Shown here one piece after another: positions 1-46,987 of a stretch of DNA of 46,987 bases. The position numbers were made by a program, and so were the translations under genes. Location: the IMG/VR virus record IMGVR_UViG_2526164667_000034, one strand, 5' to 3'. Each line of letters opens with the position of its first letter. The stretch's first letter is position 1. The notes under the pieces are model-generated. The model had not been told where the DNA came from. It saw only the letters and a list, made by a program, of their open reading frames with translations, and ran no database searches. This DNA is from a virus (taxonomy: Duplodnaviria > Heunggongvirae > Uroviricota > Caudoviricetes).

Positions 1-1158
1 ATGCTCACCGTTAAGCAGATTGAAGCAGCAAAGCCGAAAGAAAAACCATACCGCCTTCTCGATGGTAATGGCCTGTACCTTTATGTTCCTGTATCCGGGA
101 AAAAGGTATGGCAGCTTCGCTACAAGATTGACGGTAAGGAGAAAATCCTGACCGTCGGAAAATATCCGCTAATGACTTTGCAGGAGGCAAGGGATAAGGC
201 ATGGACTGCGAGGAAAGACATCTCGGTTGGCATCGATCCGGTAAAGGCGAAAAAGGCTTCGTCTAACAACAATTCCTTTAGTGCGATTTACAAGGAATGG
301 TACGAGCACAAGAAGCAAGTATGGTCAGTAGGGTATGCGACTGAACTTGCAAAAATGTTTGATGACGACATTTTGCCTATCATCGGCGGCCTTGAAATTC
401 AGGATATTGAGCCGATGCAACTGCTGGAAGTAATCCGCAGATTTGAAGATCGCGGTGCAATGGAGCGAGCAAATAAAGCCCGCAGAAGATGCGGCGAGGT
501 TTTCCGTTACGCTATTGTCACCGGCAGGGCTAAATATAACCCGGCACCTGACCTTGCTGACACCATGAGGGGATACCGCAAGAAGAACTTCCCGTTTCTT
601 CCTGCAGACCAGATCCCGGCATTCAATAAAGCACTGGCAACATTTTCAGGAAGTATCGTATCGCTCATTGCCACCAAGGTTTTACGCTACACAGCCCTAA
701 GAACAAAAGAGCTTCGTTCCATGCAATGGAAGAACGTCGATTTTGAAAACAGGATTATCACCATTGACGCCAATGTGATGAAGGGACGCAAAATTCATGT
801 TGTCCCGATGTCGGACCAGGTGGTTGAACTTCTCACTACGTTAAGCTCCATCACCAAACCAGTATCAGAATTTGTTTTTGCCGGGCGCAACGATAAGAAG
901 AAGCCAATCTGCGAGAACGCGGTGCTACTTGTGATCAAACAAATCGGCTATGAGGGTCTGGAAAGCGGTCACGGATTCAGGCATGAATTCAGCACGATTA
1001 TGAACGAGCACGAATGGCCTGCTGACGCTATTGAAGTGCAACTGGCACATGCCAACGGCGGATCTGTGCGCGGTATTTACAACCATGCTCAGTATCTCGA
1101 TAAGCGCAGAGAAATGATGCAATGGTGGGCGGACTGGCTTGATGAAAAGGTGGAGTGA
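1..1158 (+). CDS. int: Tyrosine integrase, P4 family (IntS-like, argW-integrating type)
   Basis: 385-aa ORF from the track. N-terminal arm-binding region plus C-terminal catalytic domain (HGFRHEF, RGIYNHAQY). Recalled as close to E. coli CPS-53 IntS; not verified by search. Lies at the prophage end opposite attR. Confidence 0.9.
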   Translation: MLTVKQIEAAKPKEKPYRLLDGNGLYLYVPVSGKKVWQLRYKIDGKEKILTVGKYPLMTLQEARDKAWTARKDISVGIDPVKAKKASSNNNSFSAIYKEWYEHKKQVWSVGYATELAKMFDDDILPIIGGLEIQDIEPMQLLEVIRRFEDRGAMERANKARRRCGEVFRYAIVTGRAKYNPAPDLADTMRGYRKKNFPFLPADQIPAFNKALATFSGSIVSLIATKVLRYTALRTKELRSMQWKNVDFENRIITIDANVMKGRKIHVVPMSDQVVELLTTLSSITKPVSEFVFAGRNDKKKPICENAVLLVIKQIGYEGLESGHGFRHEFSTIMNEHEWPADAIEVQLAHANGGSVRGIYNHAQYLDKRREMMQWWADWLDEKVE

Positions 1159-1402: not shown

Positions 1403-2545
1403 TCAAGGTGCTTCTCTAACGGATTCAGTTTTAATTGAAGATACATCTGATTTTTTTTGCATTCTACGAGCGATGGCATGCCCTATGGATACTGATGGTT
1501 TTTCAATAAAGTTATAAGATATGATTGATATAATAAAAGTAGCGCAAATCATAGCTAGAAAAACACCAAATCCTTTACTATCCAATACCCCGTACGGTTT
1601 GAGATATAAAACAGCAAGACTGTATACAACCATATGATTAATGTAAAGTGAATAGGATATTTCACCAACATACGTTAGAATTTTATTTCTATATACATCC
1701 CTACACTTAGAAATAAGGACTATTGGGGCTATAATCATAAATGAATAAGCCCCCCATGCTACAATTCCAGGTCCATTCCTTAACCCTAGGCATAAAAAAA
1801 GCAAGGCAATCGCTAATGTAATATTAAGAAATTGAACAACAGGCATTTTATTTATAAGTCTAGAAGGTAGCCTAATGTAGGCCTCTGCAATAATCATCCC
1901 CAAAATAAAGTCATATATTATTGGATTTGATACAAATACCAGATTACGAATAATTCCATCACCAGATGGCGGTTGCGCGATAGGATTTAGAAAAACATCT
2001 CCGTGAAAGTACAGTTGACCAAGAACGCAAATAATGATGAGAAGAAATGATGCGATCGCAGTTCTATATTTATGGCTGATGCATAATGAAAAAAAGAAAA
2101 CCACATAGAACCAAATTTCATACGTTAGTGTCCATGCAGGTATTATTATACTATAACCTGACCATGGCCCTATAAAATTATAGTCAATTGGTATGAGCAA
2201 GTAGCTCTTTATTATTTGTGATGATGTATATATTGCCTCATAGTTGAGGTATATAGCCAGAGTAAGGATTATAAAGTAAACAGGGTACAACCTAAAAAAA
2301 CGCTTAGCAGCAAACACCATTGGCCGGTTTTTTGCCTTATTCATTGAAGAATAAGTAATGATAAATCCACTTATAACAAAGAATATATCAACACCAACCT
2401 CACCTATACCAAAAAGAATGTCGCCCAAGTCCTTTTGGGCATACACTCCATTTAAATATACTCTAAAGTGAAACGCAATGACTAGAAGTACCGCGATCCC
2501 TCTAAGGACTTGAATAGAGTCTAACTTATTTGTTTTTCTTTCCAT
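1403..2545 (-). CDS. Acyltransferase family 3 membrane protein, putative O-antigen O-acetyltransferase (lysogenic conversion)
   Basis: 380-aa ORF, multi-TM, with N-terminal motif LRGIAVLLVIAFHF typical of OafA/Oac acyltransferases. Very AT-rich (roughly 32% GC). Sits between int and tailspike, where P22-like and Shigella phages carry serotype-converting genes. Confidence 0.75.
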   Translation of the reverse strand: MERKTNKLDSIQVLRGIAVLLVIAFHFRVYLNGVYAQKDLGDILFGIGEVGVDIFFVISGFIITYSSMNKAKNRPMVFAAKRFFRLYPVYFIILTLAIYLNYEAIYTSSQIIKSYLLIPIDYNFIGPWSGYSIIIPAWTLTYEIWFYVVFFFSLCISHKYRTAIASFLLIIICVLGQLYFHGDVFLNPIAQPPSGDGIIRNLVFVSNPIIYDFILGMIIAEAYIRLPSRLINKMPVVQFLNITLAIALLFLCLGLRNGPGIVAWGAYSFMIIAPIVLISKCRDVYRNKILTYVGEISYSLYINHMVVYSLAVLYLKPYGVLDSKGFGVFLAMICATFIISIISYNFIEKPSVSIGHAIARRMQKKSDVSSIKTESVREAP

Positions 2546-2615: not shown

Positions 2616-4489
2616 TTAAAAGTTTCCCTCTGATAAGAAAGAATAGGTTCCTGGCCCACCTGGAATATTGCATGTCCATGCCTTTGGTTGTCCTGAAGCA
2701 GGTGCGCTATTGATAACACGCTCACCTATATCCCAGAAACCGGATGTAGGTACTGACGAAAGATAAAATGTTGTTTTTTCAACTTGCAACGCGTTTGATG
2801 GCATTCCATATGCACATAGAGAAGGTGAGTTTATGAGTACATTTCCTGAACCATAATTTCTTATACCAACATTTATAGCTGTATCAGTTTCGTATATATA
2901 CACACCACAACTAACATAGCTCCATTTCCCATTACCAGCTAAAGGTGCTGTAGAGTCTGTTTGTCCTGCACCATTAATTATAAACATAAGTTTTGACGCT
3001 GATCCCTGGTCATTGACCCACGCACCAAACCATACAAATTTCCCTTTTAGTTCTGGTGATTTGTTGAGGTCTATCGTTCGTCCCCAAACTCTATCTCCTG
3101 TCGTAACTAAGAATGAATAATTACCAGCATAGATGTTTTGAGTTTTTATCAATGTTCCTGTAGTTCCAGATGCCGCAGTCCAGAGCAACATATTTCGATC
3201 AAGATAGTTAGCAGTTAACTCTCTGTTCGCAATATCTATTAAATGCGCAGTGTCAGGGTTTTGTGTCGCCGGGTCATAACTACCAACGTATCCGATGGAG
3301 TTCACTGTGTTGTTGGCAAGATATAGCCTGTCAGTAACTTTGGACGAAAGATTATTGTGGTACATTGCTAATAAATTATTCACTTTCGATGCGTCTAATA
3401 ACTGATTATTTTCAATCGTCAGGTTTTTCGCATAGTTCGTGAAAATAAATCCGTCTTGGTTAGGTAGCGCGCTGGCGTAGCCAATCGCGGTCTGCTGATT
3501 CCCGCGAATAGATACGGTATCATTAATTTTTGAAAGGTCAGGAATTAATGTAAAATTGTTCGCGATAAGGTGGATATCCGCACGTACTGTAATAGACTCA
3601 GGTACTCTATACTGGTAACCAATCTCACCGTTGCGTTCCCAATAGTTATCATCAAGGTTAAGGCCTTTAACCCCGTAAGCCAAAAGTCCGTAGAACTTAT
3701 TTTGCTCTATATTGTTGCCATTAACTCTGACGCTCATACCGCCCTCAGCGTAAGCTGGCGTAAGTAAAACTCCACCGGCTCCGTTACCATAGATACGGCT
3801 GTTGATTATATTAATATTATTGCAGTAACCACCAACATTAATACCGTTACCGGCGTTTTGAAACAACCGGCACCCAATGATGTCAATGGAGTAACCGTTA
3901 ACTAATATTGCGTTGTTATTAGTATTAACCACGTCAATATTTTCTATTTTAATGTGGTTGGCTTCAGTAAGACTGATGCCGTTAGCTGCGTAGCCATTTC
4001 CGTCAAGACCAAAGTCCCTGAACTCGCAGAACGTAATTACCCCATCTTGTTGCGTGATTATCGGTGCCGCTGTACCCGTAGAGAAAATTCTGGACTGATA
4101 TGCGCCAGCACCTCGTATCATGGTGACAGTATTCTTAATCGTAATACCAGGGTCAACAATGAACGCCCCCTCTGGTATAACAATCTCAGTTGGCAACGTA
4201 GCATCATCAATAGCCTTCTGAAATGCAGCTTTGTTCTGAGCACCGGTGTTTCCCTCAGCAAACCCGTAGTCTGTAAGCGTCCTCAGGTCGATAGTTAGCT
4301 TTTTTGAGAGAATGGTCGATGTGCTATCGACAAACTGTGGGTTATGCATGACTAGAGAGTCGCCAAGTGAGTGATCTTCGCTCAGGAGATTGCCCTTAAA
4401 CTGATCTGGATCATACTTTAGCACATTCGGAAAATAGAACTGCTGCGCACCGTATGCATCATAAACAGCCATAGAATGGCCTTGCACAG
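2616..4489 (-). pseudogene. Tailspike, C-terminal receptor-binding part (gene interrupted by IS2)
   Basis: Track ORF 2616..4517; its first 9-10 codons (MSGDSGGQS) are translated IS2 terminal sequence. The genuine part starts at [11 protein letters not shown], which continues the P22 gp9 head-binding domain. The long Asn/Gly-rich body fits a beta-helix tailspike and is not P22-like. Confidence 0.85.
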
Positions 4490-4580
4490 TAGACTGGCCC
4501 CCTGAATCTCCAGACAACCAGTATCACTTATTTAAGTGATAGTCTTAATACTAGTTTTTAGACTAGTCATTGGAGAGCAG

Positions 4581-4946
4581 ATGATTGATGTCTTAGGACC
4601 GGAGAAACGCAGACGGCGTACCACACAGGAAAAGATCGCAATTGTTCAGCAGAGCTTTGAACCAGGGATGACGGTCTCCCTCGTTGCCCGGCAACATGGT
4701 GTAGCAGCCAGCCAGTTATTTCTCTGGCGTAAGCAATACCAGGAAGGAAGTCTTACTGCTGTCGCCGCCGGAGAACAGGTTGTTCCTGCCTCTGAACTTG
4801 CTGCCGCCATGAAGCAGATTAAAGAACTCCAGCGCCTGCTCGGCAAGAAAACGATGGAAAATGAACTCCTCAAAGAAGCCGTTGAATATGGACGGGCAAA
4901 AAAGTGGATAGCGCACGCGCCCTTATTGCCCGGGGATGGGGAGTAA
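4581..4946 (+). CDS. insC: IS2 transposase OrfA (InsC)
   Basis: Track ORF 4536..4946; true start taken at [18 protein letters not shown]... (121 aa), recognised as IS2 InsC. Confidence 0.85.
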
Positions 4947-5809
4947 GCTTAGTCAGCCGTTGTCTCCGGGTGTCGCGTGCGCAGTTGCACGTCATTCTCA
5001 GACGAACCGATGACTGGATGGATGGCCGCCGCAGTCGTCACACTGATGATACGGATGTGCTTCTCCGTATACACCATGTTATCGGAGAGCTGCCCACGTA
5101 TGGTTATCGTCGGGTATGGGCGCTGCTTCGCAGACAGGCAGAACTTGATGGTATGCCTGCGATCAATGCCAAACGTGTTTACCGGATCATGCGCCAGAAT
5201 GCGCTGTTGCTTGAGCGAAAACCTGCTGTACCGCCATCGAAACGGGCACATACAGGCAGAGTGGCTGTGAAAGAAAGTAATCAGCGATGGTGCTCTGACG
5301 GGTTCGAGTTCCGCTGTGATAACGGAGAAAAACTGCGAGTCACGTTCGCGCTGGACTGCTGTGACCGTGAGGCACTGCACTGGGCGGTCACTACGGGCGG
5401 CTTCAACAGTGAAACAGTACAGGACGTCATGCTGGGAGCGGTGGAACGCCGCTTCGGCAACGAGCTTCCGGCGTCTCCAGTAGAGTGGCTGACGGATAAT
5501 GGTTCATGCTACCGGGCTAATGAAACACGGCAGTTTGCCCGGATGTTGGGGCTTGAACCGAAGAGCACGGCGGTGCGGAGTCCGGAGAGTAACGGCATAG
5601 CAGAGAGCTTCGTGAAAACGATAAAGCGTGACTACATCAGTGTCATGCCCAAACCAGACGGGTTAACGGCAGCAAAGAACCTTGCAGAGGCGTTCGAGCA
5701 TTATAACGAATGGCATCCGCATAGTGCACTGGGTTATCGCTCGCCACGGGAATATCTACGGCAGCAAGCCAGTAATGGGTTAAGTGATAACAGGTGTCTG
5801 GAAATATAG
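4904..5809 (+). CDS. insD: IS2 transposase OrfB (InsD), DDE catalytic domain
   Basis: 301-aa ORF overlapping orfA in the -1 frame (frameshift fusion architecture of the IS3 family); recognised as IS2 InsD. Confidence 0.85.
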
Positions 5810-5820
5810 GGGCAAATCCA

Positions 5821-6078
5821 CACAGTTACGAACTTGGCAATCTGTCCGTTATATACAGGGTAACCAGCAGCGTTAATGATGATTGGTTGCGAAACAGGAA
5901 CGTGAGAACCATCTTCGTTCTCTACATAAACCTGAATCTGGTTTTCAGGATTTACCGGGTCAGTGTCAATTTTACCGATATAAATTTTGCCATTGGCTAC
6001 AGCTTTAAAAGAACGCGCCATAGTGAAGAGTTGCGAAGGCATCGATACGATCACATTGGCATTTATTGAATCTGTCAT
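5821..6078 (-). pseudogene. Tailspike, N-terminal head-binding domain fragment (P22 gp9-like)
   Basis: [62 protein letters not shown]...KFVTV matches the P22 tailspike N-terminus as recalled. Fragment lengths minus the duplication give an in-frame 708-codon ancestral gene. Confidence 0.85.
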
Positions 6079-7699: not shown

Positions 7700-8046
7700 T
7701 GAGCAGTAAGGAGCAATACTTAAAAGTTACTTTTGAGTCTTTTAGTAATTACTTGACTTCATTCAAAAAAACTTATGTATGCCCAATATGCAGCAATACA
7801 AACTGGACTCTTTTAGCACCGGAGCATCTTAAAAAAGATGATGGTGTTGAAGTTATAGGCCCATCCATACCAGGTAAAAGCTTGCCTAATAATCCTGTTA
7901 ATCAAGATACTTATAGCAACGATAGTCTTAACATGGTAGCCATGCAATGCACCACTTGCGGTTTCTTCCACTTTTTTAGTTTAAACAAAGTTAGTGAAAA
8001 TATCTCTTCTGGAAAATTCGTAAAGGGTGATGGAGATAATGTTTGA
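7699..8046 (+). CDS. Hypothetical protein, Cys-pair (zinc-ribbon-like), low-GC accessory gene
   Basis: 115-aa ORF whose ATG overlaps the mnt stop (TAATG). Motifs CPIC and CTTCG. No family recognised. Confidence 0.6.
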   Translation: MSSKEQYLKVTFESFSNYLTSFKKTYVCPICSNTNWTLLAPEHLKKDDGVEVIGPSIPGKSLPNNPVNQDTYSNDSLNMVAMQCTTCGFFHFFSLNKVSENISSGKFVKGDGDNV

Positions 8047-8539
8047 CCAACATGTTCACAATAAATCACCTAGTATTTATGGAGATGCTCAAAGCCAACA
8101 TGAAAACCTTGACTTTGACAAATCGTTATGGAGTTCAATAGAGAACGCTAAATATTCAGAGTATTACAGACCAACTGGCAGAAATCCGTCAAAGGAACCA
8201 CAAATATTTAGCCTACAAGAAGAGCAACACAAAGAAGAAGGTCGTGATACCGTGAAACGTTTAGAGCTATACGGGGTTGCAGTTGCTATCATTGGTTCTA
8301 TCGTTGCCGCCACATGGACGATTCGAGGCACTATAGATGATAAAGTTGAATCATCACGACAAGAGCTAACAGGAAACATCCAAACCAGTAAGGCAGAGAT
8401 AATGGCTACTATCCAAAACAACCAATCAGTATTACAGTCAAGGATTGATAACACTGATCAAAAATTAGACTCAACAAACCAATCTCTTTATAAGGTATTG
8501 GCTATATTAGAGTCTCAAAAAGACAAACGTTCTCAATAG
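8039..8539 (+). CDS. Hypothetical single-pass membrane protein with C-terminal coiled-coil-like region
   Basis: Track ORF 8027..8539; start chosen at MFDQHVH with GGAG RBS, overlapping the upstream stop. TM helix LYGVAVAIIGSIVAATWTI; Q/S/T-rich heptad-like C-terminus. AT-rich. Confidence 0.55.
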   Translation: MFDQHVHNKSPSIYGDAQSQHENLDFDKSLWSSIENAKYSEYYRPTGRNPSKEPQIFSLQEEQHKEEGRDTVKRLELYGVAVAIIGSIVAATWTIRGTIDDKVESSRQELTGNIQTSKAEIMATIQNNQSVLQSRIDNTDQKLDSTNQSLYKVLAILESQKDKRSQ

Positions 8540-8560
8540 TTTCTTGATTTATTACCTATA

Positions 8561-8595
8561 GCTGCATGATTGATGTCTGTTGAAAATCATGCAGC
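8561..8595. repeat. Perfect 11-bp inverted repeat (hairpin) between accessory genes 2 and 3
   Basis: GCTGCATGATT...AATCATGCAGC with a 13-nt spacer, 25 bp upstream of the next start codon. Confidence 0.6.
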
Positions 8596-8619
8596 ATTGA
8601 TAAATCTAAGGAGATCGGC

Positions 8620-8940
8620 ATGTACATATCGCTCTCTACCATTTTTTTCATCTGCTTAGCTATTTGGCTTTTAAGAATATGGCAGGATTGCTCTGTCAGC
8701 CATGCTGCTGCGGTGAGAAATAAAAACGCCCTCATAAAAGAAGCTGAAAACGTTGTCTTATCAATGGATCACCTTTCATGGACCGAGATGACTACAGGGC
8801 AACAAGAGGTTTATGAGTGTGCGATTGAGCGGTTAAGGCTGCTTAAATCGTACAAAAAGAACCACGCTCCCGACTCATTCCCATTCCTGAAAGAATGGCC
8901 GAGATGGTATGACCCGAAAAAAGCAACCATCAACCGCTAA
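8620..8940 (+). CDS. Hypothetical small membrane protein
   Basis: 106-aa ORF with AGGAG RBS and N-terminal hydrophobic helix (ISLSTIFFICLAIWLLRIW). Convergent with gp16-like gene. Confidence 0.5.
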   Translation: MYISLSTIFFICLAIWLLRIWQDCSVSHAAAVRNKNALIKEAENVVLSMDHLSWTEMTTGQQEVYECAIERLRLLKSYKKNHAPDSFPFLKEWPRWYDPKKATINR

Positions 8941-27710: not shown

Positions 27711-28148
27711 TTATTTCAGGCACTGAGTCCTGATGTACTCCTGCAGGTAGTTAACCTGCGCGGTTATCCTGTCGATTCCACTTCGGAGACGGTAATAATT
27801 GAGTTCAGCATCTGCTGTAAGTCTTGGGCTTTCTCCATCGCCCATGCTGCTGGCTCCGGTCGTTGACTTTGCACAGGTGGCGGCGACTTGCAGGCGCTTA
27901 CGACCAGCAGAAACATCAGCACGAAGGCTTTCGATAGTAGCGTTAGCATCAGCAAGCTCCTTTGTGTATCTGGCGTCGAGTTCTGCTACATCACGTTGAC
28001 GCTTCTGCATATCAGCGATGATGGATGTGGCTTTATCGCGCTGCTCTTTGTAGGTCATGGCGTTATCACGGTAATGATTAACAGCCCATGACAGGCAGAC
28101 GATGATGCAGATAACCAGAGCGGAGATAATCGCGGTGACTCTGCTCAT
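27711..28148 (-). CDS. Rz: Spanin, inner-membrane subunit Rz
   Basis: 145-aa ORF with N-terminal TM and coiled coil, downstream of endolysin; lambda-type lysis cassette. Confidence 0.85.
27764..27955 (-). CDS. Rz1: Spanin, outer-membrane lipoprotein subunit Rz1 (embedded in Rz, +1 frame)
   Basis: 63-aa ORF entirely inside Rz; lipobox LVVSAC followed by a Pro-rich segment. Confidence 0.75.
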
Positions 28149-28621
28149 ACCTCAATCTCTCTGACCGTTCCGCCCGCTTCTTTGAATTTTGCAATCAGGC
28201 TGTCAGCCTTATGCTCGAACTGACCATAACCAGCGCCCGGCAGTGAAGCCCAGATATTGCTGCAACGGTCGATTGCCTGACGAATATCACCGCGATCAAT
28301 CATCGGCAAAGCGCCACGCTCTTTAATCTGCTGCAGCGCAACAGCGTCCTGGCTTTTGGGAGAGAAGTCTTTCAGGCCAAGCTGCTTACGATAGGCATCC
28401 CACCAACGGGAAAGAAGCTGGTAACGTCCGGCGGCTGTTGATTTGAGTTTTGGGTTTAGCGTGACAAGTTTGCGAGGATGATCGGAGTAATCAGTGAATA
28501 GCTCTCCGCCAACAATGACGTCATAACCATGATTTCTGGTTTTCTGCCGTCCATTATCTGTTCCCTCTGACCACGCCAGCATATCGAGGAACGCCTTGCG
28601 TTGATTATTGATTTCCACCAT
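28145..28621 (-). CDS. R: Endolysin, lambda R-type lytic transglycosylase
   Basis: 158 aa [39 protein letters not shown]..., recalled as near-identical to lambda R. Confidence 0.95.
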
Positions 28622-34673: not shown

Positions 34674-35608
34674 AAATCCACCCCGTAAATCCAGTCAGTG
34701 TTTGTCAGGTCGAGTTTTGGTTTGCTGGCTGTCACGCCTGCCTGTTGCTTGTTACGGTTGATTTCGAGCTGGGTCCACTTGTCGCGGAGTTTGGCCGGAC
34801 TCAGCACGTTACCGGACCAGAAGTTGTCCTGGCAGGCCCAGCGGAAAAGCACACACATATCGCGGTGGTTACGTCCGTCACGTTCACGCATCAGGCGGAT
34901 ATCGTTAGCCCACCCTGCAAAATTCGGTTTTCTGGCTGATGGTGCGATGGTCTTCACCATGTCAAACATCCACTCTGCGGCGGTCAGGTCTTCTGCTGTT
35001 CCCCACTTGCTGCCGCTCTGAATTGCAGCATCCGGTTTAACCACAGAAAGATCGTTTTCTGGCTGGTCAGAGGATTCGCCAGAATTCTCGGACGAATAAT
35101 CTTTTCTTTTTTCTTTTGTAATAGTGTCTTTTGTGTCCCCCTGTTTTGAGGGATAGCAATCCCCTAATTTGAGGGATGTTTTATCCCTCGTTTTAGGGGA
35201 TTTTCCCTCGTTTTGAGGGATCTCCCTCATTTTAGGGGAACCTCCCTCGTTTTGAGGGATGCACCATTCTGAGATGTTTTTATTTGGTCCAAACATGCCG
35301 CCTTGCTGCTTGATAATATTCATTCTGACGAGTTCTAACTTGGCTTCATTGCACCGTTTGACAGGTAACTTTGTAATCTCGCTAAGTTGAGAATCGGTGA
35401 TTCTGTCCATTGGTTTATTCCACCCATAGGTTTTACGCAGAATGGCAAGCAGCACTTTAAACTGTCGCTTGGTCAGATCTGCGCCTGAATAGGCCTCAAG
35501 CAGCATATTTGATAGTCTGGCGTAACCATCATCGAGATCTGCCACATTACGCTCCTGTTCGGCAAAGTTACCTCTGCCGAAGTTGAGTATTTTTGCTGTA
35601 TTTGTCAT
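34670..35608 (-). CDS. O: Replication initiator O, lambda-type, with expanded iteron-encoded repeat
   Basis: 312 aa MTNTAKILNFGRGNFAEQERNVADLDDGYARLSNMLLEAY..., recalled as lambda O (299 aa). Contains tandem IPQNEGGSPKMRE / IPQNEGKSPKTRD encoded by the iterons. Confidence 0.95.
   Translation of the reverse strand: MTNTAKILNFGRGNFAEQERNVADLDDGYARLSNMLLEAYSGADLTKRQFKVLLAILRKTYGWNKPMDRITDSQLSEITKLPVKRCNEAKLELVRMNIIKQQGGMFGPNKNISEWCIPQNEGGSPKMREIPQNEGKSPKTRDKTSLKLGDCYPSKQGDTKDTITKEKRKDYSSENSGESSDQPENDLSVVKPDAAIQSGSKWGTAEDLTAAEWMFDMVKTIAPSARKPNFAGWANDIRLMRERDGRNHRDMCVLFRWACQDNFWSGNVLSPAKLRDKWTQLEINRNKQQAGVTASKPKLDLTNTDWIYGVDL
35137..35260. repeat. Replication origin iterons (about 6 copies, TCCCTC-N-GAGGGA type) with adjacent AT-rich tract
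   Basis: Repeats CCCCTGTTTTGAGGGA, CCCCTAATTTGAGGGA, ATCCCTCGTTTTAGGGGA, TCCCTCGTTTTGAGGGA, CTCCCTCATTTTAGGGGA, CTCCCTCGTTTTGAGGGA inside O; AT-rich region at about 35085-35135. Confidence 0.85.
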
Positions 35609-35640
35609 AATGACTCCTGTGGATTGATCCAGTAATTCCC

Positions 35641-35937
35641 TCAGAATTGCATATCAATTTGCTTAGAGTCCCCGGCGGCCACCGGGGATTTTTTCTTTGT
35701 GATTTCATCAAGCGCATACTTAAAAGCCCTGCTAATCGGACTGATGTCTGATGCCATTCCGAAAGCACACAAGACCGAAGCAATAAATCTCCAGTCCGTT
35801 CTGCTTATCTTCGATTCATGACAGCCAATCATCTTTGCCAGACCGCGCTGGGTAAGCGTTGACAGGTTGATGAGTAAATCTGTTTCTGCGCGATCAATTT
35901 CTCGCTGTGTTAGCTTGCTGTAACTTGCTTGTTCCAT
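35641..35937 (-). CDS. cII: CII-like lysogeny activator
   Basis: 98-aa ORF with HTH (GLAKMIGCHESKISR) and C-terminus KKKSPVAAGDSKQIDMQF paralleling the lambda CII C-terminal degradation tag region. Confidence 0.8.
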   Translation of the reverse strand: MEQASYSKLTQREIDRAETDLLINLSTLTQRGLAKMIGCHESKISRTDWRFIASVLCAFGMASDISPISRAFKYALDEITKKKSPVAAGDSKQIDMQF

Positions 35938-35989
35938 TTCTTATGATTTCCAATAGTGAATATTACGCATCTGTTGATGCGTTTTTTGT

Positions 35990-36006
35990 GGGGACGAATC
36001 ATCCCC
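35990..36006 (-). promoter_or_regulatory. nutR boxB-like hairpin
   Basis: Minus-strand GGGGATGATTCGTCCCC (5-bp stem) between cro and cII, identical to the nutL copy; followed by a second hairpin CGCATC-AACA-GATGCG. Confidence 0.65.
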
Positions 36007-36034
36007 GACCTGATTGTTTAAAGAGCGGTGTTAC

Positions 36035-36259
36035 TTATGCTGCCTGATTCGGTTTTGGAAACAGGTGTGGCAAATCGGGGCGAATTTCGTAAGCCTTGAT
36101 CTGCCCTCCAGTGGCGTTAACGATGGCGGTAACTTTCTCTGGAGAGACCAACCCGCCTTTCAGCCATTTGTGTACTGCTGGCTGCGTTACACCACACTTG
36201 TCGGCAAGGCGCTTTTGGCTACCGACAATTTTCAAGGCTCGTTGAATTACTAAATTCAT
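36035..36259 (-). CDS. cro: Cro-like repressor (HTH)
   Basis: Start at MNLVIQRALKIVGSQKRLADKCGVTQPAVHKW... with AAGAGG RBS 7 nt upstream; divergent from cI across the operators. Confidence 0.8.
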   Translation of the reverse strand: MNLVIQRALKIVGSQKRLADKCGVTQPAVHKWLKGGLVSPEKVTAIVNATGGQIKAYEIRPDLPHLFPKPNQAA

Positions 36260-36295
36260 GAGCATACCTCTTGTGGTCATTACTTATAACCAAAG

Positions 36296-36358
36296 ATAAC
36301 TCAAGTTATAAAAAATAGCAATAACCTTTGTTATTTTACTTTGGATAACCGTAGTTAT
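36296..36358. promoter_or_regulatory. Right operator OR (three ATAAC-N4-GTTAT palindromes) with divergent pR/pRM
   Basis: ATAACTCAAGTTAT (36296-36309), ATAACCTTTGTTAT (36321-36334), ATAACCGTAGTTAT (36345-36358), spaced about 24 bp, between cro and cI. Confidence 0.75.
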
Positions 36359-36370
36359 AGATTTGTGGGT

Positions 36371-37078
36371 ATGAAAACATTCGCAGAAAGACTAAATGCA
36401 GCCATGAGCTCAGCAGGGGTATCACAATCACAGCTTGCTGACATGGTTGGAATATCTCAGCCAGCCATACAGAAGATGTCGTCCGGTAAAACAAACGGAT
36501 CTCGCAAGATGGTTGAATTAGCCAATGCTTTAAAAGTGCGCCCTGAATGGCTTAGTTCTGGTATTGGTGAAATGAGGGATGGTGCACATGAAGAACCATC
36601 CAATGTCCGTGAGTCATCTTTAAAAGCTGTGGTATGGGAAGACATTAAAAGAAACGATGACGAGTTTGTTGCGTTGCCTCTTCTTAACGTTTCGCTTTCA
36701 GCTGGAAGCGGTAGCTGCGAGCTAGAGGAATCATCGGAGTTCTCTTTGGTTTTCAGAAAGCACTATCTGAAAAAGATGGGAGTATCTGAAAGATCAGCCA
36801 AGCTAGTTAGGGTTGTAGGGCAAAGCATGGAACCAACGCTTCACGATGGCGATGTTGTTGGTGTTAACACGCAAGATACCACCATCAGAGATGGTAAAAC
36901 CTACGCTATTTGCCAGTCTGATTTGTTACGAGTAAAAACATTAATCGCCACCCCTACATCGGTGATAATCAGATCAATAAATCGCGAAGAGTACCCGGAT
37001 GAAGTAATGGATAGAGATGAATTTCATGAAACCGTAAGGATTATTGGCAGAGTATTCTGGTCGTCTCATAGTTGGTAA
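36371..37078 (+). CDS. cI: CI-type prophage repressor (HTH plus LexA-like S24 peptidase domain)
   Basis: Track ORF 36341..37078; start chosen at MKTFAERLN. HTH QSQLADMVGISQPAIQKM and C-terminal autoproteolytic domain GQSMEPTLHDGDVVGV. Confidence 0.9.
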   Translation: MKTFAERLNAAMSSAGVSQSQLADMVGISQPAIQKMSSGKTNGSRKMVELANALKVRPEWLSSGIGEMRDGAHEEPSNVRESSLKAVVWEDIKRNDDEFVALPLLNVSLSAGSGSCELEESSEFSLVFRKHYLKKMGVSERSAKLVRVVGQSMEPTLHDGDVVGVNTQDTTIRDGKTYAICQSDLLRVKTLIATPTSVIIRSINREEYPDEVMDRDEFHETVRIIGRVFWSSHSW

Positions 37079-37118
37079 CCGATAATCAGAAGAAGACTTA
37101 CGGAAGTGCGGAGGGATA

Positions 37119-37415
37119 ATGGAATTTCTGATAGTTTTTGTTGTTGTTTTGGTCATCATTCTTTTTGTTTTGCTAAGCATTAGTAAAAAGCTATCTCAAG
37201 TGATTGAACATAGCTCTAATCGCGCAAAAGAAGAAGAGCATCTAATTGATATAAAAGAGATTCTCTCTGATATAAAAATCACATTAGATGAAATAAAATA
37301 CACAACAGATCTAATTGAACAGTATAAAATACCAACCCCAAACGAGAGAAAAGCAATAGATCAATATCGTATTGACTTAGAAATCGACGAAATGCTAAGC
37401 AAAAGAAAAGACTAA
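37119..37415 (+). CDS. Hypothetical small membrane protein co-transcribed with cI (rexAB position)
   Basis: 98-aa ORF 40 bp after the cI stop with GGAGGG RBS. N-terminal TM EFLIVFVVVLVIILFVLLSI, charged helical remainder. Very AT-rich. Followed by a strong terminator. Confidence 0.6.
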   Translation: MEFLIVFVVVLVIILFVLLSISKKLSQVIEHSSNRAKEEEHLIDIKEILSDIKITLDEIKYTTDLIEQYKIPTPNERKAIDQYRIDLEIDEMLSKRKD

Positions 37416-37420
37416 AAACA

Positions 37421-37448
37421 CCCGGCCTCAGCGCCGGGTTTTCTTTTC
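37421..37448 (+). terminator. Rho-independent terminator ending the cI operon
   Basis: CCCGGC-CTCAGC-GCCGGG hairpin followed by TTTTCTTTTCC. Confidence 0.85.
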
Positions 37449-37589
37449 CTGCCGTCCCCCACCCAATCAACCATCCTCATCATAGACAAGCATCAAGCCA
37501 AAGGTAGCACTTTCACCCCGCACGCAAGCCCTCAAACACCAATCAATCAGCAACATTTACAAAAATAAAATACCTTTGTTATCCATCAC

Positions 37590-37654
37590 TTATAACTTAT
37601 TTACCATAAAATATAAACTAAGTTATTGACCGCGCCTATAACCTAAGTTATCTT
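37590..37654. promoter_or_regulatory. Left operator OL and promoter pL
   Basis: ATAACCTAAGTTAT (37638-37651) and ATAAACTAAGTTAT (37612-37625) match the OR half-sites. Putative pL TTGACC-17 bp-TATCTT reads rightward toward N. Confidence 0.65.
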
Positions 37655-37721
37655 TAAGCCATCAGCAGGACGCAGGAAGCCAAACGGAACAGATTGGCAG
37701 GCTCTTTAACATTGATGGAAT

Positions 37722-37738
37722 GGGGATGATTCGTCCCC
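37722..37738 (+). promoter_or_regulatory. nutL boxB hairpin
   Basis: GGGGATGATTCGTCCCC in the pL leader, identical to the nutR copy. Confidence 0.65.
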
Positions 37739-37893
37739 ACCAAAGAGAGGTTGGCTTTGGGATTTGATGAATGTGCAGGTCGATGCACTAACGCTTAGCG
37801 GTGAGCACCTGCCTTTGGGGCAGGATGGGTAGCCGCAATCAGGAGATCGACACCTGACATCAAATCACCAAAGTCAATCATCGGAGGTATCCA

Positions 37894-38100
37894 GTGAAAG
37901 CAAGAGAGATTCGCAAACTCAAACGCGCTCGTAAGCACAAAGAGGCGACAGCAAAACGTAAAAATATTGACCGTGTTTCAATGGTGGTTTCGCTAGCAGG
38001 AGCGAATAGGAAGAAGGTTGAATGTGGTTCGTGCTGCCTGCCAAACGTAGCCATTTACGCGGCAGGCTACCGGAAATCAAAACAACTGACGGCGAGGTAA
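37894..38100 (+). CDS. Early antiterminator N, P22 gene 24-like
   Basis: 68-aa ORF (GTG start, GGAGG RBS) with Arg/Lys-rich N-terminus. C-terminus RVSMVVSLAGANRKKVECGSCCLPNVAIYAAGYRKSKQLTAR matches the P22 gp24 C-terminus as recalled. Confidence 0.75.
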   Translation: MKAREIRKLKRARKHKEATAKRKNIDRVSMVVSLAGANRKKVECGSCCLPNVAIYAAGYRKSKQLTAR

Positions 38101-38102
38101 TT

Positions 38103-38465
38103 ATGGGTCAGGAAGAAAAATATGAGCTTAAAAAGCTCATTGGAGAAGACGCCATAGAAGAAATTGCAGCATTAACAACAGCTATAAAGAATATTAGGTA
38201 TGCGCTAAATACGCTTATCTCCTCATGCGACAAAAATAGCAGGGAATTTTTGATACTTGGCGCAGCTCTAGGAATAGTTGATGCGGCAACGCTTCACCTA
38301 ATTACTCATGACGATATTCTTATTGAGCCGTATGAAACATTACTGCTTGTCAGGCAAAAAATGGCTGATGCCGCAGCAAATGGAGACCTTCAACTTTACA
38401 TCGACTTAAGGAAAGTATTAAGGCGAATGGTCAAAACTGAAGGAGATATCCCCCTGACAAAGTAA
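38103..38465 (+). CDS. Hypothetical protein (AT-rich early-left accessory gene)
   Basis: Track ORF 38022..38465; start chosen at MGQEEKYELKK, whose ATG overlaps the N stop (TAATTATG) with GAGG RBS. No family recognised. Confidence 0.55.
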   Translation: MGQEEKYELKKLIGEDAIEEIAALTTAIKNIRYALNTLISSCDKNSREFLILGAALGIVDAATLHLITHDDILIEPYETLLLVRQKMADAAANGDLQLYIDLRKVLRRMVKTEGDIPLTK

Positions 38466-38495
38466 GGGGGTGAAGAGGCCATTTCAGGAATAAAA

Positions 38496-38990
38496 TTAAT
38501 AATTTGTCAGCGGCGGTACATATACAGGCTTAGGGTCTGGCGCTCTATACATCCGGTATTCATTCTTACAGCGAGGACATGAATGCACAAAGAACCCATT
38601 AGATTTTATAGTAACCGTGCTTGGTTGAAGTATCGATATTTTATGTTCGCCGAAGCAATGTGCACAAAGGTTATGCTGCTGAATAGAAGGATCGGAATGA
38701 CTCTTAGGTCGATACACGACAGAACCACCTTCAGTTGTATGAAGTTCATAATTCTCAGCTTGCACAACAAACATCTTGATTTTTCTATTTTCATCTCGAA
38801 GCTTCATTGCGATCTCCTTCTCGGCCTGATAAAGGCCAGAGAGCTCCGCATTAAGCATCTGTAAGTCAGTTATTCTTTGGTGTAGATCACCAATAGCTTT
38901 AGCGATAACAGCATCGTCTCTGGTTTCTTTTATTGTCTTCAGCAGATCATAAGCCTGTTTCGCGGCAGTTATACCAGATAACACATCCAT
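38496..38990 (-). CDS. Hypothetical coiled-coil plus C-terminal zinc-ribbon protein, opposite strand to the pL operon
   Basis: 164-aa ORF; N-terminal heptad-rich region and C-terminal CAHCFGEHK...CPRCKNEY. AT-rich. Upstream region carries direct repeats. Confidence 0.6.
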   Translation of the reverse strand: MDVLSGITAAKQAYDLLKTIKETRDDAVIAKAIGDLHQRITDLQMLNAELSGLYQAEKEIAMKLRDENRKIKMFVVQAENYELHTTEGGSVVYRPKSHSDPSIQQHNLCAHCFGEHKISILQPSTVTIKSNGFFVHSCPRCKNEYRMYRAPDPKPVYVPPLTNY

Positions 38991-45739: not shown

Positions 45740-46987
45740 CTATATTGCTGAAGGTACAGGCGTTTCCATAACTATTTGCTCGCGTTTTTTACTCAGGAAG
45801 AAAATGCCAAATAGCAACATCAGGCAGACAATACCCGAAATTGCGAAGAAAACTGTCTGGTAGCCTGCGTGGTCAAAGAGTATCCCAGTCGGCGTTGAAA
45901 GCAGCACAATCCCAAGCGAACTGGCAATTTGAAAACCAATCAGAAAGATCGTCGACGACAGGCGCTTATCAAAATTTGCCACGCTGTATTTGAAGACGGA
46001 TATGACACAAAGTGGAACCTCAATAGCATGTAACAGCTTCACTAATGAAATAATCCAGGGGTTAACGAACAGCGCGCAGGAAAGGATACGCAACGCCATA
46101 ATCACAACACCGATAAGTAATGCATTTTTTGGCCCTACCCGATTCACAAAGAAAGGAATAATCGCCATGCATAGCGCTTCGAGTACCACCTGGAATGAGT
46201 TGAGATAACCATACAGGCGCGTTCCTACATCGTGTGATTCGAATAAACCTGCATAAAAGACAGGAAAAAGTTGTTGATCAAAAATGTTATAGAAAGACCA
46301 CGTCCCCACAATAAATATGACGAAAACCCAGAAGTTTCGATCCTTGAAAACTGCGATAAAATCCTCTTTTTTTACCCCTCCCGCATCCGCCGCTACGCAC
46401 TGGTGATCCTTATCTTTAAAACACATGTTGATCATCATAAATACAGCGCCAAATAGCGAGACCAACCAGAAGTTGATATGGGGACTGATACTAAAAAATA
46501 TGCCGGCAAAGAACGCGCCAATAGCATAGCCAAAAGATCCCCAGGCGCGCGCTGTTCCATATTCGAAATGAAAATTTCGCGCCATTTTTTCGGTGAAGCT
46601 GTCAAGCAAACCGCATCCCGCCAGATACCCCAGGCCAAAAAAGAGCGCCCCCAGAATTAGACCTACAGAAAAATTGCTTTGCAGTAACGGTTCATAAACG
46701 TAAATCATAAACGGTCCGGTCAAGACCAGGATGAAACTCATACACCAGATGAGCGGTTTCTTCAGACCGAGTTTATCCTGAACGATGCCGTAGAACATCA
46801 TAAATAGAATGCTGGTAAACTGGTTGACCGAATAAAGTGTACCTAATTCCGTCCCTGTCAACCCTAGATGTCCTTTCAGCCAAATAGCGTATAACGACCA
46901 CCACAGCGACCAGGAAATAAAAAAGAGAAATGAGTAACTGGATGCAAAACGATAGTACGCATTTCTGAATGGAATATTCAGTGCCAT
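45740..46987 (-). CDS. cscB: LacY-family oligosaccharide:H+ symporter, sucrose permease CscB-like (host gene)
   Basis: 415-aa 12-TM ORF starting at the window edge. LacY-family motifs (GLKKPLIW..., FEYGTARAWGSFGYA). Recalled as CscB of the csc regulon, which maps next to argW; not verified. Confidence 0.75.
   Translation of the reverse strand: MALNIPFRNAYYRFASSYSFLFFISWSLWWSLYAIWLKGHLGLTGTELGTLYSVNQFTSILFMMFYGIVQDKLGLKKPLIWCMSFILVLTGPFMIYVYEPLLQSNFSVGLILGALFFGLGYLAGCGLLDSFTEKMARNFHFEYGTARAWGSFGYAIGAFFAGIFFSISPHINFWLVSLFGAVFMMINMCFKDKDHQCVAADAGGVKKEDFIAVFKDRNFWVFVIFIVGTWSFYNIFDQQLFPVFYAGLFESHDVGTRLYGYLNSFQVVLEALCMAIIPFFVNRVGPKNALLIGVVIMALRILSCALFVNPWIISLVKLLHAIEVPLCVISVFKYSVANFDKRLSSTIFLIGFQIASSLGIVLLSTPTGILFDHAGYQTVFFAISGIVCLMLLFGIFFLSKKREQIVMETPVPSAI

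Follow-up and report, generated by a model that had tools for sequence, protein, structure and literature searches.

A small gene behind the cI repressor of a P22-like prophage encodes a predicted membrane protein and candidate phage-exclusion factor

The interval between cI and N is the place at which lambdoid prophages carry genes that benefit their host, namely, rexAB, bstA, and toxin-antitoxin pairs, and the locus described here raises the question of what is contributed by the single small gene, orf98, that was found at this place. The window, which is the entire stretch of DNA analyzed (46,987 nt), corresponds to a P22-like prophage encoding P22-type coat, portal, injectosome, and stabilization proteins as well as a tailspike. 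A first-pass annotation had read orf98 as a gene in the rexAB position that is co-transcribed with the repressor, and had suggested that its product is a minimal exclusion or abortive-infection factor. In this work, the position was verified and co-transcription was found to be implied by related loci, whereas no homology to Rex or to any defense or exclusion family emerged; it is the position and the architecture of orf98 that point to an exclusion or abortive-infection function. The family to which orf98 belongs is an uncharacterized occupant of the interval.

The gene upstream of orf98, initially taken for a CI repressor, is indeed of the cI type, with matches to HTH_3, Peptidase_S24 (E = 1.4e-17), and phrog_4 (Table 1). 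The neighboring cro gene is shorter in its RefSeq version (36035-36259). A search of the whole 47-kb window for the operator pattern ATAAC-N4-GTTAT returned five matches, three at oR and two at oL (37613-37626 and 37638-37651), with none elsewhere. A third, degenerate oL operator was read from the sequence at 37572-37585, and a pL-like promoter, TTGACC-17-TATCTT, is located at 37626-37654. Since operators occur solely at oR and oL, which flank orf98, the gene lies inside the immunity region, and coordinates and operator search together assign it to the rexAB position, downstream of cI on the same strand and ahead of oL/pL. By analogy with lambda, pRM is expected at oR, a region in which no consensus promoter was scored on the plus strand. 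Comparison with the known boxA consensus suggests that a nutL site follows pL; an Rfam search of positions 35500-38600 gave no match, nutL included. The genes P, O, cII, and cro are carried on the minus strand, and cI, orf98, its terminator, and an N-like ORF on the plus strand, on which cIII and kil probably follow beyond the N-like ORF, judging from an identical annotated locus.

The N-like ORF (37894-38100, 68 aa, GTG start) matches the C-terminal half alone of the N_peptide family, and its RefSeq equivalent is a pseudogene devoid of the N terminus. The start of the ORF is nonetheless K/R-rich, and nutL appears to be intact. Elsewhere, the same immunity module is accompanied by a 90-aa gene at this position.

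Table 1. Location of the features of the orf98 region, of the segments of the orf98 protein, and of small ORFs in related loci and in the sieA-type slot
Feature	Coordinates	Strand	Basis or remark
cro-type repressor gene	36035..36280	-	Pfam YdaS_toxin, P22_Cro, HTH_3; RefSeq of identical locus
oR, three ATAAC-N4-GTTAT operators between cro and cI	36296..36358	.	Pattern search
cI-type prophage repressor, 235 aa, HTH + S24 autoprotease	36371..37078	+	Pfam, PHROG, RefSeq start; stop codon ends at 37078
cI-orf98 junction, 40 nt	37079..37118	+	Contains GGAGGG; no terminator or credible promoter
orf98, 98 aa	37119..37415	+	ATG start at 37119; six-frame ORF listing, phrog_18389 match, architecture
Intrinsic terminator, t_imm equivalent	37420..37448	+	Stem and T-run, folding
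oL operators and pL-like promoter	37572..37654	+	Operator pattern, promoter scoring
nutL (putative): boxA GCTCTTTAACA at 37701-37711, boxB hairpin GGGGATGATTCGTCCCC at 37722-37738	37701..37738	+	Read from sequence
orf98 protein, TM helix	residues 3-21
orf98 protein, variable linker	residues 23-44
orf98 protein, conserved helical hairpin	residues 45-97
Convergent ORF, L004	6324-6530	-
Convergent ORF, L006	5324-5548	-
Convergent ORF, L011	4733-4960	-
Convergent ORF, L012	1924-2133	-	DUF2767
170-aa ORF, central TM helix and coiled coil	8027-8539		sieA-type slot
106-aa ORF, N-terminal TM helix	8620-8940		sieA-type slot

The signals that had been noted around orf98 were all recovered. The ORF starts 40 nt past the cI stop, a GGAGGG Shine-Dalgarno sequence (37110-37115, read from the sequence) precedes its ATG by 3 nt, and the gene is closed by a terminator with a stem at 37420-37439 (7 pairs, 6 of them G-C) that is followed by TTTTCTTTT up to 37448. 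This terminator folds with -17.1 kcal/mol (z = -2.9) and scores on the minus strand too, and the junction between cI and orf98 has no significant structure (fold z = +0.23). The AT-richness relative to cI was equally evident, the GC content being 30.3% for orf98, 43.6% for cI, and 46.8% for the whole window.

orf98 is a real gene under purifying selection. At its composition, the probability of encountering no stop in 98 codons is 1.6e-4, and an ORF of at least 98 aa arose in 22 of 5000 shuffles of the region. Comparison with the Citrobacter-type and metagenome copies (74-77% amino acid identity) resulted in dS values of 0.76-0.85 and dN/dS ratios of 0.16-0.18. The frame was intact at all 31 IMG/VR loci inspected, which differ by a few conservative substitutions. 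About 2% of the complete E. coli genomes (98-110 of 5426) carry orf98, annotated every time as hypothetical, and many O26:H11 EHEC strains are among the carriers. Of 50,697 deposited phage genomes, a single one contains the gene, namely, that of an unannotated Stx1a-converting phage, in which it lies in the immunity region; the only carrier in the plasmid collection is a 1.4-Mb record. One E. coli copy is interrupted by an IS3 element in a prophage that is otherwise maintained, and orf98 is therefore dispensable. In E. coli O26:H11 FWSEC0001 (L057), the cro-cI-orf98 module resides in a decayed P22-like prophage; IS600 is present there twice, the integrase carries an internal stop, and there are several pseudogenes, yet cI and orf98 are both intact.

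Relatives of orf98 were retrieved first by a word-indexed search and then by searching 1.84 billion representative proteins exhaustively with HMMER; among these proteins, the family comprises 21 clusters at E <=1e-3. The relatives that share 41-77% identity with orf98 are each encoded 14-44 nt past the stop of a cI-type (HTH + S24) repressor gene and before oL/N. They fall into seven kinds of locus, namely, those of the window, L004 (C. freundii), L006/L008, L011, L012/L014, L015, and L048/L049. The repressors at six of the seven are 19-64% identical in pairwise comparisons, with 19-30% between that of the window and the others. A GGAG site was present at every homologue locus read, and a hairpin with a T-run at all except L015. 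The DNA homology between cassettes extends from the ribosome-binding site through the terminator hairpin, and the six loci at which the GC content was measured all show lower values for the homologue (30-37%) than for the neighboring cI (44-50%).

The co-transcription with cI that had been claimed for orf98 is strongly implied by these gaps of 14-44 nt behind mostly unrelated repressors, with no intervening terminator. Read-through from the repressor promoter is the parsimonious interpretation, since a gap of 14-15 nt cannot hold a promoter and since a promoter buried in unrelated cI genes is unlikely to be conserved. The only promoter-like site near orf98, within the 3' end of cI (37044-37072), was rejected as its promoter because the 9/12 match has chance frequency and because unrelated cI genes could not all preserve it. 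The sRNA svsR, reported for another prophage at the cI 3' end (PMC12803456), appears to be unrelated to orf98.

None of the remotest relatives (<=35% identity) was found behind a repressor. Their contexts are an integrase-adjacent island, a position after a sigma-54 NtrC-type regulator, and a Pseudomonas chromosomal island; the remote members P0025 and P0028 also match phrog_18389. Among the GTDB representative genomes, no close relative and a single remote match, from Pseudomonas, were detected. In a Pseudomonas sp. locus (L054, 1876-5174), the chromosomal genes around the remotest homologue encode several small predicted membrane proteins but no repressor, and PADLOC returned no match for the neighbors of the remote homologues, this locus included. 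A further hit, P0036 (446 aa, five matched stretches), was dismissed as spurious, being a match to a short tandem repeat protein. A convergent ORF of 68-75 aa lies between the orf98 terminator and oL at loci of the Citrobacter type and at related ones (Table 1); neither the window type nor L015 has it, and it was therefore rejected as an obligate partner of orf98.

The cI-N interval has been described as a mosaic hotspot that harbors rexAB and bstA as lysogen-expressed defense cargo (PMC8585504), and its mosaicism in lambdoid phages is credited there to Degnan 2007 (as cited in PMC8585504). The distribution of orf98 agrees with this description. In E. coli, cro, cI, orf98, the terminator, and oL travel as one block, around which cII/O and nutL/N vary, and the number of genomes with the cI allele of the window at >=99% identity (about 105) is near that of the orf98 carriers. 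cI alleles that are 93-94% identical are followed by a DUF3024 gene or other genes instead, with homology to SH2026Stx1 breaking 2 nt past the cI stop, and behind an allele that is 79% identical the slot is empty on the cI strand. In phage H-19B the slot holds HigB/HigA, and this different cargo is closed by the same terminator hairpin that closes orf98 and its homologues in other genera. The same or nearly the same cI is thus found with other cargo, and orf98-type cargo behind unrelated cI genes, as is typical of hotspot cargo; orf98 has been placed independently behind unrelated repressors. The cI-to-N stretch of H-19B (L009, 1151-2550) comprises the HigB toxin, an HTH antitoxin-like gene, and a 93-aa ORF, which are unannotated in the record.

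At the protein level, both parts of the proposed layout were confirmed, namely, one N-terminal TM helix and a charged, predicted-helical remainder. The TM helix is purely aliphatic, with a mean hydropathy of 3.7, and is flanked by M-E on its N-terminal side and by S-K-K on its C-terminal side; the net charge of the whole protein is -5. Family members all have an acidic or neutral N terminus and basic residues after the TM helix, so that, by the positive-inside rule, an N-out/C-in topology is predicted with about 75 residues in the cytoplasm and essentially nothing in the periplasm. AlphaFold2 models contain helices alone (pLDDT 81-84, pTM 0.29-0.35); in the model based on the deeper alignment, a long helix (residues 2-69) is followed by a K-I-P-T turn and a second helix (74-97). 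As modeled, the protein is elongated and probably oligomerizes, for which reason a low pTM is to be expected. The mean pairwise identity within the family amounts to 16-40% for the linker and 39-84% for the distal hairpin, which is characterized by the motif I-K-Y-(T/V)-T-D-x-I-E-x-Y-K-(L/I)-P-x3-E-R-x2-(I/L)-D-Q-x-R-(I/V)-D-x-E-I. This motif is kept down to 23% identity across genera, and Y69, P72, D81, and E88 are invariant. The most conserved part of orf98 is hence the hairpin predicted to be cytoplasmic and not the TM helix.

Over its entire length, orf98 aligns with phrog_18389 (residues 1-98 versus 1-98, E = 1.8e-61), a PHROG without annotated function that names the family and explains nothing. 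Searches of Pfam, NCBIfam, and PADLOC returned sub-threshold matches alone and no defense or exclusion family. The matches to DUF5385, MscL, and ZorB (E ~0.01) were set aside as hydrophobic-segment noise driven by the TM helix. No match to the Rex families was obtained with Pfam, PHROG, NCBIfam, or PADLOC at E values up to 0.1-1. A profile search of PDB sequences gave nothing below E = 0.2, a fold search of the orf98 model against the BFVD and PDB structure libraries gave no match, and searches of the literature by accession or PHROG identifier yielded nothing. Judged by its sequence, the family is thus uncharacterized and unrelated to known cargo of the slot or to small prophage exclusion proteins. 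Its kind is already known, in that both cI-co-transcribed cargo of the cI-N interval and small phage-excluding prophage membrane proteins have been described.

Among these systems, RexAB of lambda shares with orf98 the slot between cI and oL, the strand, the location in the immunity region, and a terminator before oL; rexA and rexB are transcribed from pRM together with cI (PMC11077077). RexB is an inner-membrane protein, as orf98 is predicted to be, and the Rex system acts against T4 rII and other phages by way of a loss of membrane potential. However, RexAB consists of the soluble 31-kDa RexA and RexB with its four TM segments, whereas orf98 is one 98-aa protein with one TM segment, and no RexA-like partner gene was found, the interval between cI and the terminator containing a single ORF. 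BstA of the Salmonella prophage BTP1 is likewise encoded directly after cI, with a presumably shared promoter, a Rho-independent terminator, and a synteny that is maintained across diverse prophages (PMC8585504). It localizes to sites of phage DNA replication and has a self-immunity element, aba, inside its own locus (PMC8585504). orf98 occupies the same place behind cI but is similar to none of the defense models searched.

The closest analogy in layout is that to HK97 gp15, a superinfection-exclusion moron of a lambdoid prophage, which inserts into the inner membrane, blocks genome injection, and was derived from the bacterial YebO family (PMC3594210). The receptor is not blocked by gp15. 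Both proteins have an M-E-x-L start (MEPL in gp15), a TM helix, basic residues, and a charged helical tail, and both genes are followed by a terminator; gp15/YebO and orf98 also have distant relatives outside prophages. gp15 is expressed from the prophage, as orf98 presumably is. The two do not appear to be homologous (hhalign probability 0.4%; no YebO Pfam match). gp15 has 62 aa and is encoded in the tail operon, where it is described as an independent transcription unit, whereas orf98 has 98 aa and a conserved terminal hairpin and would rely on the cI promoter. [quoted passage not shown] SieA has 162-164 aa and three predicted TM segments and is encoded beside gene 16 (PMC10883804), whereas orf98 has 98 aa and one TM segment, lies beside cI, and has no homology to SieA. 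PdpSau of S. aureus, finally, is likewise encoded by a prophage, possesses an N-terminal membrane helix and a cytoplasmic C terminus, and alters membrane polarity and permeability (PMC10127798). It differs from orf98 in its Gram-positive host, its positively charged C terminus, and its linkage to lysis genes instead of a repressor, and homology between the two was examined through family libraries alone. In the window, lysis-type ORFs (27711-28621), identified by analogy with the annotated O26 locus, are located about 9 kb from orf98. A type I toxin or holin-like toxin was rejected as a classification, given the 98 aa of orf98 with a conserved soluble part of 75 residues and no Rfam RNA. Of the hallmarks of morons, orf98 shows a distinct composition and its own terminator, but not its own promoter.

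The reading that we favor, to which we assign a probability of roughly 40%, is that orf98 is a lysogen-expressed inner-membrane phage-exclusion factor with a mode of action like that of HK97 gp15. Having no promoter of its own, orf98 would be read through from cI, with pRM driving transcription in lysogens and pRE driving it during establishment; the transcript would end at the t_imm-like terminator before oL, and the product would hence be made constitutively in lysogens. A two-residue acidic stub would be exposed outside, a single TM helix would serve as anchor, and the cytoplasmic part would consist of a long stalk helix with the conserved helix-turn-helix hairpin at its end and would probably oligomerize. 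[quoted passage not shown] Exclusion is favored by the purifying selection, the position in the immunity region, the conserved synteny, the variable cargo slot, and the topology signal, and also by the travel of orf98 with the immunity module, the precedent of HK97 gp15, and the retention of the gene in a decayed O26:H11 prophage. Against it stand the near absence of a periplasmic part with which an incoming tail or ejection protein could make contact and the conservation of the hairpin, which is not diversifying as would be usual for a protein that targets phage components. The remote relatives outside repressor contexts, the IS3-disrupted copy, and the lack of any family or structure match also weigh against it. 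The conserved hairpin and the non-prophage relatives suggest a conserved cellular or host partner, and on this basis a role other than defense may be considered, in which orf98 modulates host physiology or the lysis-lysogeny switch of its own phage by tethering to the membrane a conserved protein of host or phage, such as FtsH/HflKC or a component involved in stress or division. There is precedent for an action of slot genes on the switch, since RexA biases that of lambda toward lysis independently of RexB (PMC11077077), and the transcription from pRE at the establishment of lysogeny that is presumed from lambda would suit such a role. However, orf98 resembles no known regulator, is disrupted by an IS element in an otherwise maintained prophage, and is not part of the core switch, since related cI alleles carry other cargo or nothing; we consider this alternative doubtful, although it is the strongest competitor of exclusion.

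Less probable again, and in our view unlikely, is abortive infection by one protein, in which the hairpin would sense a product of the infecting phage and the TM helices would form a pore or depolarize the membrane, so that the cell dies before phage release. orf98 would then be RexAB compressed into one polypeptide or a counterpart of PdpSau. Its slot is that of rexAB and bstA, both of them abortive-infection systems (PMC8585504), and in H-19B that of a toxin-antitoxin pair; PdpSau provides a matching layout together with a loss of membrane polarity (PMC10127798), and the one long amphipathic stalk and the low pTM would fit a functional oligomer. Yet a purely aliphatic TM helix of 19 residues without polar residues is a poor pore former, and neither a partner or sensor gene nor a defense-family match nor a self-immunity element was identified. 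Elements of these proposals may be combined in a one-protein, membrane-tethered sensor whose hairpin captures a specific conserved protein at the membrane, either an early protein of a phage or a factor of the host (for example, a protease or a component for DNA entry), and thereby triggers membrane failure or couples the membrane state to the cI/Cro switch. We regard this combination as quite improbable; if it were true, the Pseudomonas and other chromosomal relatives would be the cellular ancestors of the module. The least credible explanation is that of a selfish or nearly neutral passenger kept solely by tight linkage to cI. An AT-rich, foreign-looking, rare (21 clusters), and dispensable gene might be expected of a passenger, but the purifying selection (dN/dS ~0.17 at dS ~0.8) makes this very unlikely, and the maintenance of the motif to 23% identity and the independent occurrence behind unrelated repressors also argue against it.

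If exclusion is confirmed, orf98 would represent a new minimal membrane-based mechanism and could help to explain which phages, those encoding Stx among them, are able to superinfect the pathogenic carriers. If there proves to be no phage phenotype, the cargo of the cI-N hotspot would not be all defensive. With 98 residues and four invariant positions, the protein is well suited to quick genetic and structural study.

Several further observations were made in the remainder of the prophage. In the sieA-equivalent slot beside the injectosome gene (8027-8940), two more small membrane proteins are encoded that are candidate exclusion proteins (Table 1). Inside the pL operon, but on the opposite strand, lies a 164-aa ORF (38496-38990, minus strand) that belongs to phrog_1244, for which no function is annotated; its product resembles a coiled coil near the N terminus and carries two CxxC pairs near the C terminus, and the ORF may be a separately expressed moron. 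The P22-type tailspike gene (2616-6078) is split by an IS3-family element (orfA/orfB, 4536-5809) into fragments for the head-binding part (5734-6078) and the body (2616-4517), both on the minus strand, and the prophage probably cannot give rise to infectious virions. Adjoining the tailspike, an acyltransferase-3 family gene (1403-2545, minus strand) probably encodes an O-antigen acetylase for lysogenic conversion. A tyrosine integrase is found at the tailspike/acyltransferase end and a LacY-like permease at the early-left end (window positions 1-1158 and 45740-46987), an arrangement that departs from the usual layout of P22 prophages.
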